A stretch of DNA of 64,000 nt from Eimeria praecox (Eukaryota): NCBI GenBank assembly GCA_963920595.1, contig OY986947.1, positions 2,728,001 through 2,792,000 of the forward strand. The letters are read 5' to 3'. This document shows positions 1 to 64,000 of this stretch, one piece after another. Both the position numbers and the translations under genes were made by a program. Numbering within the stretch: the stretch's first letter is position 1; the number at the start of each line of letters is the position of its first letter. The notes under the pieces were generated by a model, which did no database searches, was not told the DNA's origin, and saw only the letters and a list, made by a program, of their open reading frames with translations.

Positions 1-2500
1 GAAGCCTAAACAGAAAGTGTAAATACAAGCTCGTGACTGCGTTTGGAGTGGCGTGCTCCCCAACGAGGCAGTTGTGTGTATGCGTAGCCAGAAAAGCACA
101 CTAAGGTAGCCCAATAGCTGTGCAACAGAAGCGGTCGCATGGCAACAGAGAATAAACGCTGTTCAAGGAACCACGGGGATAAGGCCAATTGCAAACGAAA
201 TCCGTTGACCAAGCTCCACAAGCCAGAAATAGGGAAGATATTGATTGAATTGGAGGGTGAATCAGGGGGCATACATCGGCTGCATCAAAAGTGCAAGGAG
301 TGATTCCTCGCGGGATGCGACTAGTCGCGCGCAACGCACTTGCTGGATACTCCATAGCCCACAGGAGAAACCCAACCATCAGGGACAATCAACAGAAGGC
401 AAATTACCAGTGCCCGTAGTCTATACACTAGGCAGACGTGCATTCAGCTGTAGCCACATCAAGCTATCCGGCAATGATAAGCAGCTTCGAACCCCCCACG
501 CGCAGTACCAGGTCCAAGGTGCGGAGGTTTGCAACAGGTGCAAGGTACGCACTCGCTGTGCGGTACACACTTGCCTAAAGGGTATAAGCCGCTGCAGCAT
601 TAGATTAGAAAGGGCACAAAGACGCATTAAAGGACCTTGGGAAGACACCCAAGCCCGTCAAAAAGCTCAACCTCCTTCCAAGATGCCACTGCTAACGAAG
701 GTACGAAGTTGGGATGGTGGCGCTCGCCATACAAGCAACACAGCGACCAAGCCAATAGATACAACAAACAGCCTATGCCGTGCAGGCACGTGTCAAACAG
801 CAACACTGCCTTTAAAAATTCAACGGCTCCTGCCTGTCATGAATGATCCATGCAGACAAATGTCCAACATCACAAAATAACCAGGGTTCTGCACAAAACA
901 ACTGAAATAGTTCAAGAAGCATTCAAAGGCTGTGATGTAGCGAAGCTAGACTGTCCGGTTGTTTGCCGTGCGCGAAACGTTTTCTGGGCAGTTAGAGGTC
1001 CTACGAAAAGGCCTCGACACTTCTTCACAGATTGGACGGGAGCCAACAGCAGTAAGTCGGCAGCTTTTGCAGCTAAACCGAATGCGCATATACAAACTCG
1101 TAAATGCGTTTGGTGTGGCCCTTTTTCCAAACTCGGCAGCTGCATTTCCGTGCGGTCAGAAGTAGTACATTAGGGCAGCCCAATAGCTGTGCCAGAGAAA
1201 TTGTGTTATAACAACAGAGAACAAGTTCGGTGCGAGTCAAGAACCTAGGTCTACAGAAATGAACCCCTTTGACCGAGATTGGCAAACGGGAGTAAAGACT
1301 TTGCTTATTGAACCTCAAGGCGAATCAGGATGCGGTTAGGGGCTGCATCAAAACTGCAAGGAGTGATTCCTCGCGGGATGCGACTAGTGGCATCCAACGC
1401 ACTTCCTGCGTACGCTACAGCCCACAGGAGTAATCCAACTATCGAAAACGTTCGACAAAAGGTGCATTGGCAGTGATACGCAGCCTATGCGCTAAGACGG
1501 CAGCATTCGGCTCTAGGAACATCACTCTGCCCGGCAATGATAAGCAGCTTTGGACCGACCACTCGCAGCAGAAGGTCCAAGGTCTGGAGGTTTACCCCAG
1601 GTGCAAGGAACCCACTCGCTGCGTGGCTCAGTGGTCGCTAAAGCGTGTACCCCGCTGCATCGTCTGCTTGTAGAATCACAAAGCGGCGCATTAGAGGACC
1701 TTTGGCAGATAGCAAAGCCCGTCCAAACGCCCAAGTCCCCTCCAAGCTGCCATTGCTGACGAAGTTGGGATGCGGGTCTCGTCATGCATGCAACCCAGCG
1801 GCCAAGCCGACACACCACAGAGCCTGCGCCTCACATATGGGATCAAAAACTATAAAGCAGATGCGAAAACGTCAAACCTCTTCCACCCGTGTGCACACAC
1901 CGATGTTCGGATGTCAAGCATGAAACGATACCCAGGTCTCTGCACAACGCAACAAGAAAGGTTCAAGGGACATTCAAAAGGAGTCGTGACGCTCTATACG
2001 TCCCGCGTTTAGGTCCTGCACGAAGCGTTTTCAGTGCATTCCGAGGTCCTGCAAAAAGGACTCACCATTCCTTCACAGATTGCACGGACGCCAAAGGCAG
2101 GAAGTCGGCAACGTTCCGAGCCTATATCAAACGTGCAAATACAAGCTCGTGGGCTGCCGATTTCGACAGCTGCATGTTTGCTTGTCCACAAAAGTCACAT
2201 TAGGGAAGTCCGGTAGGGCTGTGCCACAGGAACTGAACTGTATCATGAGAGCAGACGCCAACGAGCGTTGAAGGAGTCACCCTGTTCAGGCCCATCACAA
2301 TCGAACAGCCTTGCCGCACGCTGACAAAGAAGGGTAACGACAATATGGATTGAACCTCAAGGCGAGTCACGATGCATTTACGGGCTGGTCAAAACTACAA
2401 GCAATCCTTCCTCGGCGGTGCCGCTTGCCGCAGCCAACGCACTTCCTGCGTACTCCACAGCCCACAGGAACACGCCGGTCATCAAAAACAACCGGTAGAA
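1..2500. repeat. Old, diverged tandem repeat of about 1.05 kb (about 2.4 copies, running off the window start)
   Basis: Homologous anchors recur at about 1040-1070 bp spacing: tgcaaggagtgattcctcgcgggatgcgactagt at about 292 and 1355; caacgcactt.ctg at 332, 1395 and 2435; gcccaatagctgtgc at about 109 and 1178; gaacctcaaggcga at about 1310 and 2353. Confidence 0.85.
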
Positions 2501-5500
2501 GCCAAAATGGCTGCGATGAGGAATGCTAGCCGCATGCGAAATAGGGTGCCAAAGGAAAGAAGTCTTTTGAGCGAGGAAACTGAGGACACCGTCAATCTTT
2601 TCCAGCTGCAATGCAACAGAATTGTCTCAAACCAAGCAAAACCATATCCCAGAGGCCGCAACACAGAGATGATGGTGCAGGCCAACCCAACAAACAGTGA
2701 TCGCGGAGAAATCGCCATACGGGCATTACGCCTGTACCCACTACTCGTTTGGATGTTTGGGGGCAATCACAGTCGTGCACACGGCAACTCAGACAAGCAA
2801 TGCATCGGGCAAATGGTGCCGCGATATTTTGTTCACTGAATTCGTTGCGTAAGAAGGGGCCTGCAACGCACACGCTACGCATTGGCAATGCTTCCCATAT
2901 TCAACATACTCCTGCATACACTCGACAAAGACACACGACACGACAAGGCATGCGCATAGCCACCTGAAAACCGCGGATATGTGATTAAAAACCCTTCTCC
3001 GGCATCAATGCAAGCGCTATTGGCAACTATGTCCACGTGCAAGCACATATCCCACACCCAAAAGAAGCATCGCAAATGCTATCTCATGCAGACTAGTGTA
3101 GAACATATGAGGCGCGCAATCGCAGGCAAGGAGTCGAGGAGCACAGCAGATCACACAGTCACACAAAGCAGCGTGGAGAGTATACCACAAGCAGTGGCCA
3201 CCAACAAATCAAGGGGCACTACAGATACTGCGCCACAGGTGGCTACAGCATTGCACCCAAGTACAGACCATGCAACCGTCACTGGAGCAGGCTTTCCCAA
3301 CAAATCATTCAGCAATGCCTCTAAACCCTCATCAATCCATTGAGTGCACGCGCTCTGAGAAGGAAGAACTCCTACTCGCATCGCGCCGACTTTGGGGCTT
3401 TACGAGGCATCCACCCCGCTTCCAGCGAGCAGCTCAGAGCACGCTGAAGCTTGCGCGGGTGCGTGCCCCTGCTGAAATCGTTGGGCGTACACCAGTGCGT
3501 TGCAGGCCAGACGCGCCTTCATGCCTAGAGCACAATCAAAATGCTAATACTACATGCATTAGAAAAATTCAAGCACTTCTAATAAACAGCACACTCGTAA
3601 TATCTTACAGACAGCGTAAGAGGTGCACCAGATAGGCAGTGATGGCACACCGCGCATCAGGCACAGACCAGCAAGCCGCCAAACGCCTGTCATAAACGTT
3701 GCATCGTACGGAACGAATAGGGCAGGCCAGGTATTCGGCAATCAGAAGATGTGCACAAAGTCATGAAGCTACGCCGTGTAGTCGAAGCCTGCTCCCCAGT
3801 TGCAAGACCATCCCTACGAGTGTTTCGTCAGCCCTATTCAACGCACTCGCTGTCAGCCAAAAACCTTTGTGCATTGTTCGAACTAATGCTGCACACATTG
3901 GACAGAAGGCAAAGTGCTAAAGAGAATACTCATCACAAACTGTGAAGCAAAGATATTGAGACGCAAGCATTCTATGCCAGTGGTGGCGGGATCAGTAGAA
4001 CGCGAGCATGCGCTAGTGCATTTTACGCAGCGATGAAGCGTAACTGCAAATGGTACAGGTGATTTGCCGCAGACAGGAGCTTGCAGGGCGTGCTTCCAAG
4101 AACCCGATCCCCAGAAACAGTGGAACTCCTAGTTGCCAACAGTGCTGTCTGTGTTTGCTGGGAAAGAGAACGACCAGTAGTGGACGCGTTTCTCCACTAA
4201 TCCATCCCAGTAGCAACTGAAGCTTCTACCGGACTTGCCACTGCTTCGCTCTGGTTCTTCGGACCTTTGGTAAGGCATGCAAAGTGTCACAGGATCTCAT
4301 GCAAACGGTTGTCGGAGCATCTAAGCCACAGCAACAAGGGCTGAGAAGAGCAAACGACAGTTTTGGCCCATAATGTGGGTCACGCGCAGCGCGCCACACT
4401 AAATGCAAGACTTCATCTCAAGATGGATCTTCACGGTGGGACGGCCAGACAAAGAGAATACAAGGACACACATAGCACCAGCGAGCTGCGGGAAGACTGC
4501 ACAACAGAGCGCTGTGTCAGGCAAGCAGCAGGTCGATAATACGTGGCAGGTGCTGAGAAGCACGGAGTCATTTAGTTTCTGCTATACTCGAATGTTATGC
4601 TGTAGGTGTAGTATAAACAAATTCACAGAAGAAAGGCGATGGCTGCAGGCGATCGTCAGGAAGCAATGGCTAGCGGATTTGCAGCATTTGTTAATTCTGC
4701 TGCCGACCCGCTAGGTGCACTAAACGCACGGCCTTAAGCAGGCGTGTATAGGCCGCTGCACCGCAGGGCTGACTACCAACGAACAAATGTGGAGCTAGCT
4801 GCATGTGCCGCATTAAGTAGAAAGCTGCAACGCTTAGCGTCTGCTGATGCTGGCAATATCGGCAGGTGTGCAGATCTACAAGCTCACGATATAAAGTAGT
4901 CATGCAGTAGTGCATCCCAGGGGCTCAGCGATTCAAAACGTGGATGTTCGCTCTTTGCATGCAAGTGGCAAATAATGACTAAGCGCGTTGCAAGAAGCCA
5001 CTATCCAGCGTTTCGGCGCCACCCACGAGCAGCCTCATGCTGAAATGTCACGCTAGCCGGTTTGCATATGCACTTTCAAAACCGATCATTCGACATAGGA
5101 GCCCGGCGGTGCCGAATGCTGCAGAACGTGACACGGTGCGCACTCTCTATGCGTTACAGTGCTTTTCGGCGTATCTACACCCCTACAGCGCGCGCTTCGA
5201 GAAGCGCAAAACACCAATTAGAGGACCATGGCCAGACAACAAAGCCAGTCCAGAAGCTCAAGGCCCTTCGAATCTATCACCGCTGAAAACGCCAGGCTCG
5301 AGCCTCTGCAAAATAACTATTTCTCAAACAGCAACACAGGCGAGAACAATACAACACCTCAAACGCGAAAGGGATTATTTGCACAAGCCCATACCCCACG
5401 TGAAAAAACAACCAGCGTTCTGCACAGAAGAACTCATGTAGCTCAAGAAACATTTAAAAGCTCTATAGAGGTTAGGCATCCAGCATTTATGCCGTGCGTA

Positions 5501-63292: not shown

Positions 63293-64000
63293 CTATTCAC
63301 ATAGAAACTTTGGGAAGCAGGCAGGGCAATAACGGGACACTTCGGTGCACTGCAGTATTGTGCCGCAAGCCGTGCGGAGACCACAACCCAAATAACGGTC
63401 CATGTAAGCATCAAGAGTAGACCGCTTCACGGTTGTCTATTCATTCATGCTATTACCTTGAGTTTGTCCGCTTCGAGAGAAGAATCCACCTTAGTCTTGT
63501 TTTCGGTCACACAATTCCGGGGATTGATCTACTCCAGCCAGAGGCAAGGTGCGATAGCAAATTTCGTTAGACGCAGGAGTGAGGAGTGAACAAACGTCGG
63601 AATAAAAGCATGGCTGCACAGGTTCCTCCAGCAAGGAATATTGGGGAACGACCGAGATGCTGCTTGATGCCGTGCACTGCAGGTAACAGGACAGTAACTG
63701 GCCACTGCTAGTGAAAGGAGCCAAAAAGCAAGGTATGCGGTATCAACAGGGTTGCTGAGCCACCCGCAGAAATAGACAAGCATTTAGACCGAAGTGCAGG
63801 CTATCCGAGTACCCAATGCCGTCATCGAACTACGATTCCTTTGTGGAGTGACACTGCCGCAGCCTTTAAGCATCCTCACCTTTTGTTTCAATCATGCAAG
63901 AGGAAACATTCTGAGACAAAGCAGCCTGCCTACCATCGGTAGCAGACCGTGCAATATATGCATACCGCTGCTCGCAGCACCTAACTACGAGACAAGGTCT

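Follow-up and report, generated by a model that had tools for sequence, protein, structure and literature searches.

Can a eukaryotic gene be divided so finely that each of its exons holds a single codon? The question is raised by a stretch of 64,000 nucleotides (nt) from Eimeria praecox (GenBank assembly GCA_963920595.1, contig OY986947.1, positions 2,728,001 to 2,792,000), which we refer to as the window and which was analysed over its whole length. On its minus strand, words typical of 5' splice donors are again and again preceded by an AG at a distance of exactly 3 nt. GTRNG-type donors and YAG acceptors are the established consensus words of U2-type introns, and each such site can be read as an acceptor, a three-letter exon and a donor. 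The excess of this triplet-spaced motif is real. Our reading of it is that the locus is probably a phase-0 gene with one codon per exon, whose exons would be included almost constitutively and whose introns would likely be removed one after another.

Across the window the minus strand has 166 occurrences of AG-NNN-GTRNG and the plus strand has 16, and an AG stands exactly 3 nt before GTGCGT at 57 of 72 minus-strand sites and at none of the 15 plus-strand sites. An earlier reading, made from the letters alone without database searches (the sequence-only reading), had reported this geometry for the minus strand only, at 35/40 for GTGCGT, and the full count bears it out. Tandem repeats make up about half of the window, and their copies inflate the whole-window counts; the non-repetitive part, from 13.0 to 43.3 kilobases (kb), was therefore tested separately, and the counts that follow refer to it. 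Here GTGCGT has an AG at 3 nt in 23/27 cases on the minus strand and in 0/2 on the plus strand. The minus strand holds 93 AG-NNN-GTRNG sites against 17.9±4.3 expected (100 order-4 Markov simulations, maximum 30), and the plus strand holds 11; the sequence-only reading had claimed 92 minus-strand sites between 13.3 and 42.9 kb. With the same untrained motif every other spacing from 0 to 40 nt gives 7-25 sites, with no comparable excess, and the minus-strand peak at spacing 3 that the earlier claim implied is present.

A splice-site score trained on the spacing-3 sites separates them further: 76 sites at spacing 3 exceed a score of 3, and the 45 other spacings between 0 and 45 nt have 0-8 such sites each. 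The untrained, Markov-controlled counts are nevertheless the cleaner test, because the trained score had learned from spacing-3 sites. By the trained score all other exon lengths up to 45 nt are at background, as are the strong sites at 6, 9, 12, 15, 18 and 21 nt (2, 4, 3, 1, 0 and 4, respectively). GC donors are not in excess (7 vs 6.2 expected), and spacing 0, where AG directly precedes GT, gives 10 sites vs 14.0±3.7 expected, with 1 strong site. A mixture model puts the number of true sites at about 97 of the 193 AG-NNN-GT candidates. The raw matches across the window include chance hits, such as GTGTGT overlaps in a 1052-base-pair (bp) repeat and one TAA triplet at 25,498-25,500. The minus strand, which is the predicted sense strand, is T-rich in 31/32 bins of the window and G-rich in 32/32, a composition that might fit one long transcription unit.

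Do these sites resemble splice sites in respects that played no part in defining the raw motif? C precedes the AG in 56/93 raw sites, and the acceptors of 94 chain sites comprise 61 CAG, 17 TAG, 14 AAG and 2 GAG, so that the acceptor is mostly CAG, as had been claimed. A second AG lies within 8 nt upstream at 12/93 raw sites, compared with 766/1733 other AGs (p=5e-10), and the pyrimidine fraction at -14 to -3 is 0.576 vs 0.513. Gaps shorter than 100 nt occur twice among the 76 strong sites, where random placement gives 17.2 (0/5000 simulations as low), a scarcity that a minimum intron size would be expected to cause. The predicted introns of this unique part have a median length of 294 nt and range from 100 to 1954 nt. 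An A at -16 (37/93 sites vs 23.5%) is the sole branch-point-like hint seen. The U2-type features present are thus GT-AG ends, a GTRNG-like donor, a YAG acceptor, exclusion of upstream AG and a pyrimidine bias. The GTRNG donor words listed by the sequence-only reading hold, but its list was incomplete, since some sites have weaker GTYAG or GTYCG donors. In upstream AG exclusion, in the minimum gap and in their retention in diverged duplicates (described below), the sites behave like splice sites.

The motif could instead be unrelated to splicing, as a protein-binding site or the relic of an old repeat, or an assembly artefact. It is true that tandem repeats fill about half of the window and that the splicing signals are known from DNA only, yet we regard this explanation as very improbable. 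The 93 sites stand in flanks without detectable mutual homology, in agreement with the unrelated flanks described earlier, and the donor, acceptor, pyrimidine and AG-exclusion features occur together at them. Long pieces of the window recur, with 0-3 differing letters, in contigs of the sequencing runs X1-X3, which come from two studies; this argues against an artefact, although one of them may be the source of the assembly.

Joining the sites with a minimum spacing of 90 nt gives a best chain of 155 predicted 3-nt exons, each of the form AG-NNN-GT, at 340..63292 on the minus strand. It spans 62,950 nt and has 465 exonic nt, with 111 distinct contexts; 146/155 members score above 1.4 and 124/155 above 3. 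The sequence-only reading had proposed a chain of about 140 micro-exons; the chain itself is borne out but the number is not, as the best chain has 155 members and 111 distinct flanks. Both ends of the chain likely continue beyond the window. Inspection of the long gaps for larger exons gave no convincing candidate. In the order of transcription the chain consists of 13 exons, then 30, then 93 and finally 19.

If the triplets are retained, they should read as codons. As previously claimed the spacer is highly variable, with 44 different triplets in use. In the joined chain frame 0 contains 0/155 stops, frame 1 contains 7/154 and frame 2 contains 12/154, although zero stops also result from 14-21% of column shuffles and the open frame is weak alone. 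Codon log-odds, computed with an average amino-acid table, are 0.228 in the unique part (n=85) vs 0.096±0.057 after independent column shuffles (p=0.003, and p = 0.002-0.005 across four thresholds); for 82 low-scoring AG-NNN-GT controls they are -0.40, with 4 stops. The raw, untrained motif gives 93 triplets with log-odds of 0.170, 1 stop and no Cys, compared with -0.232 for 888 other YAG+3 nt. Charged residues cluster, with 12 in 15 (p<=0.002), though the flanking introns there are unrelated. In six diverged duplicate pairs, with flanks 55-75% identical, the AG, GT and +5G are kept at 30/30 core bases, a conservation that is partly by construction because the pairs were picked among known sites; four of the six lie in regions found independently by blastn. 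The triplets of these pairs comprise three that are unchanged, one synonymous change (Arg), one Arg/Lys and one Glu/Gln. The sequence-only reading had left two options, and the first of these, retained single-codon exons, appears to be favoured by the solely open frame 0, the codon-level signal, the charge clustering and the synonymous or conservative changes between diverged copies.

Besides the two reservations just given, on the open frame and on the core bases, several results weigh against a gene of single-codon exons. With triplet positions 2 and 3 exchanged the log-odds are 0.223 vs the real 0.170, which scores as well, and therefore much of the raw signal is a purine-rich, T-poor first base; a bias at this position could be imposed by the 3' splice site. 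Avoidance of NAG triplets is not significant (4 NAG/24 NAA vs 11/18, p=0.07), and a YTRAY-like branch motif is not enriched (25/93 sites vs 334/962 controls). About 10 members of the chain are weakly scored and may be wrong, there is no start, stop or ordinary exon inside the window to anchor the frame, and at a seventh homologous site, in addition to the six pairs, the donor has been lost. The joined product fits neither of two domain profiles, RRM and bPH_2. All of the support for one codon per exon is, moreover, read from the DNA.

The preference at the first base after the acceptor can likewise explain part of the codon-like signal if the triplets never reach protein, whether as relay points within a single giant intron or as exons in a non-coding RNA. 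This would also account for the lack of an ordinary exon and of any Pfam domain in 20/79 long frames, and for a coding density that would otherwise be just 0.74% of the span. We nevertheless find it quite unlikely. Known recursive sites have zero nt between AG and GU in the accessible text of PMC13149111, and spacing 0 is without excess here; use of an acceptor followed by use of a donor 3 nt downstream retains 3 nt by splicing chemistry. Relay points would also explain neither the length of exactly 3 nor the open frame 0, the codon-level structure or the synonymous change. Offset recursive sites, the second option of the sequence-only reading, are accordingly disfavoured, and within the window no ordinary exons were found that could bound a giant intron.

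The reading of one codon per exon can be followed through the anatomy of the chain, in which whole intron-plus-codon units have been copied by tandem repeats. The first 13 predicted exons (54394..63292, minus strand) are Lys/Asn-rich and include a 1607-bp tandem unit that is present in about 5 copies at about 54,606-62,488 on the minus strand, with two exons per unit (Lys, Asn); an older part-copy of this unit, 70-73% identical, lies at 62,636-63,133 on the same strand. The next 30 come from the 1052-bp tandem unit (43114..53469, minus strand), which has 10 copies of about 99.5% identity with the exons Gln, Glu and Gly in each. In the Gly exon the donor, GTTAG, is weaker (score 3.0). In run X1 the depth at the edge of this unit is about 10x that of the flank, consistent with real tandem copies. 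The 93 predicted exons at 13320..42941 on the minus strand have mutually non-homologous flanks and would encode about 75 mixed hydrophobic and polar residues, followed by a charged segment; their introns have no remaining mutual similarity. A compound hexamer microsatellite of the (TATATC)n / (TATGTA)n type, 1.1 kb in length, occupies 27639..28783 (strand not applicable) inside one predicted intron, and because it fills that intron the longest predicted intron reaches 1954 nt. Runs of TA and TC dinucleotides adjoin this microsatellite, and a 60-bp TA run is found at 18,114-18,173.

The last 19 exons come from two units. A tandem unit of about 3416-3420 bp at 2150..13158 (minus strand), whose copies are 97-99% identical, carries Arg, Glu and Ala exons. 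An older 1040-1063-bp unit at 6..2469 (minus strand), whose copies are about 67% identical, carries two exons per unit (Glu or Gln, then Arg), with the signals in register. The lost donor mentioned above belongs to a decayed exon at 11620..11622 on the minus strand, in the first, partial 3.4-kb unit, where the donor GT is now TA and the triplet has changed; its homologues at 8564-8566, 1616-1618 and 553-555 are Arg exons. The decayed exon is also a natural example of exon loss without a frameshift. Introns within the repeat units (2-13 kb and 54-63 kb) are longer, at about 400-1700 nt, than the median of 294 nt in the unique part, and hidden weak exons are possible in them.

Samples of both studies also contain a second copy of the region 13,200-43,400, with roughly one third to one half of the depth of the main copy. 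Identical blocks are interspersed in it with blocks of about 10% divergence, and it could represent either a divergent allele or a paralogue. None of the three runs in which this DNA was found (X1-X3) is registered as RNA, which counts neither for nor against transcription. The differences examined were the 80 shown of 1001 places (40/556 and 40/445), of which 78 were checked and two in the 1052-bp repeat omitted. None of the 78 falls in an AG or GT, where about 1 would be expected by chance, so this has no power as a test of conservation. Two differences affect the chain, one in a donor and one in a triplet, and both fit the gene model, although they are only two events. The exon at 18072..18074 (minus strand) has a weak GTCCG donor, which in the second copy (X1, X2) is GTGCG, the commonest donor word; the triplet at 38827..38829 (minus strand) changes from Val to Ile in the second copy (X1, X2, X3). 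The second copy also lacks 47 nt (20,093-20,139), a stretch whose end is about 10 nt away, on the upstream side, from the acceptor belonging to the exon at 20,079-20,081. Metagenome scans with two 24-nt stretches of the window gave 0 matches each.

Variation of this kind bears on whether the triplets are always included. They might be real but optional cassette exons: any one transcript would then contain only some of them, and isoforms would differ from one another by single residues. All of the exons are symmetric and in phase 0, so that skips stay in frame, the donors differ in strength and one homologous site is decayed, and the repeat expansions and the divergent second copy suggest a variable locus; skipping is also the mode described for micro-exon genes (MEGs) in the accessible part of PMC4015677. 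We still consider cassettes unlikely, as most sites are strong (124/155 with a score above 3) and the ordered hydrophobic and charged segments would be easier to keep with near-constitutive inclusion.

What would such a near-constitutive gene encode? The final 36 residues of the predicted product comprise 15 Arg and 11 Glu, and this tail is likely to form a charged single helix, while the mixed hydrophobic part of about 75 residues may fold. The stretch of Gln-Glu-Gly x10 would place Gly at every third residue, the spacing of a collagen-like Gly-X-Y repeat, but it stems from one recent duplication, its Gly exon has a weak donor and it has no Pro. Pfam gave 0 families in the 20 of 79 long stop-to-stop frames of the window that were covered, and Rfam gave 0 matches in the window. 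An RRM (PF00076), spotted by eye, was rejected at -1.9 bits, a score as high being reached by 78% of 2000 shuffles; the profile was built from 15 bacterial matches, is narrow and differs from Pfam's own model. A bacterial PH domain (PF03703, bPH_2), also picked by eye, was rejected at 1.9 bits, with 76/2000 shuffles as high, on a profile built from 25 of the 33 listed matches.

For the preferred reading we propose that each intron, with a median of 294 nt, would be recognised by intron definition, and that neighbouring introns would be removed sequentially and not engaged together, because a spliceosome is far larger than an exon of 3 nt and there is no room for two of them at a distance of 3 nt. 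The part of the messenger RNA (mRNA) covered here would be about 465 nt long and would encode in turn a Lys/Asn-rich stretch, (Gln-Glu-Gly)x10, about 75 mixed residues and the Arg/Glu-rich tail. As all introns are in phase 0, the gain, loss or skipping of a unit would change single residues without a frameshift. The chain would then grow by duplication of intron-plus-codon units, adding +2, +3 or +5 residues per unit in frame, and loss of a donor would drop one residue with the frame kept. The unique part may have arisen by such duplication or else by intron gain.

If this is confirmed, more than 150 consecutive single-codon splicing events would turn 63 kb of DNA into some 465 nt of mRNA, and in practice exons could not be made any smaller without the frame being lost. 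The locus would offer a natural setting in which exon definition cannot operate and in which intron definition and the order and fidelity of splicing could be studied, and would show protein repeats expanding through intron-plus-codon duplication. It would also mean that seemingly gene-free regions of some eukaryotic assemblies hide genes whose transcripts standard tools cannot align to the genome. On balance we think it more likely than not that the locus represents a class of eukaryotic gene, with one codon per exon, hundreds of introns, a strictly ordered ratchet and single-residue variation, invisible to gene finders and aligners and perhaps common among protists.

How does the chain compare with systems already described? 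In a full-text literature search that was partly lineage-targeted, with most subscription papers outside it and supplements excluded, no description of a long run of consecutive 3-nt exons was found. Isolated cases of such exons are known: the available text of PMC12230235 counts 27 three-nucleotide exons, spread over 26 genes, in Coprinopsis cinerea, that of PMC12584245 gives exons down to 3 nt in Amphidinium carterae, and plant microexons are among the isolated cases of 1-3 nt (PMC8831610, in the part available). For the 1-nt exon of Arabidopsis APC11, intron definition and one-after-another removal have been proposed (PMC4674806, accessible part). These cases have in common with the chain that spliceosomes can retain exons of such sizes, probably through intron definition and sequential removal. 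They differ in that, as far as these sources describe them, the small exons are single or paired between ordinary exons, whereas here a continuous chain would itself be the coding region.

Recursive sites with zero nt between acceptor and donor resemble the chain in the closeness of the two signals, in their repetition over a long region and in stepwise removal (PMC13149111, in the text available). In them, however, the AG abuts the GU and nothing is kept, whereas here a fixed gap of 3 nt reads as codons; zero-nucleotide recursive splicing was rejected on the count at spacing 0 (10 vs 14.0±3.7 expected). The chain also resembles the MEGs of Schistosoma, which are characterised by an N-terminal signal peptide, a secreted product and isoforms that arise through skipping, and in which nearly all of the coding region consists of short symmetric exons, most commonly of 21 bp (PMC3166049 and PMC4015677, accessible parts), with sizes of 6-36 bp (PMC3166049, likewise). 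As in MEGs, all 155 predicted exons are symmetric (a multiple of 3), so that skips would stay in frame; frame 0 is open. More than 75-80% of the coding region of a MEG is micro-exonic; within the window, beyond which the gene probably extends, all of the predicted coding sequence lies in 3-nt exons. Unlike the 6-36 bp of MEGs, every exon detected here has 3 nt, and some 155 of them follow one another across 63 kb; a Schistosoma-type MEG was rejected by exon size (76 strong sites at 3 nt, with 6-21 nt at background). From its sequence the chain would stand at the extreme of micro-exon architecture: most likely a gene of 63 kb or more in which every exon holds one codon.

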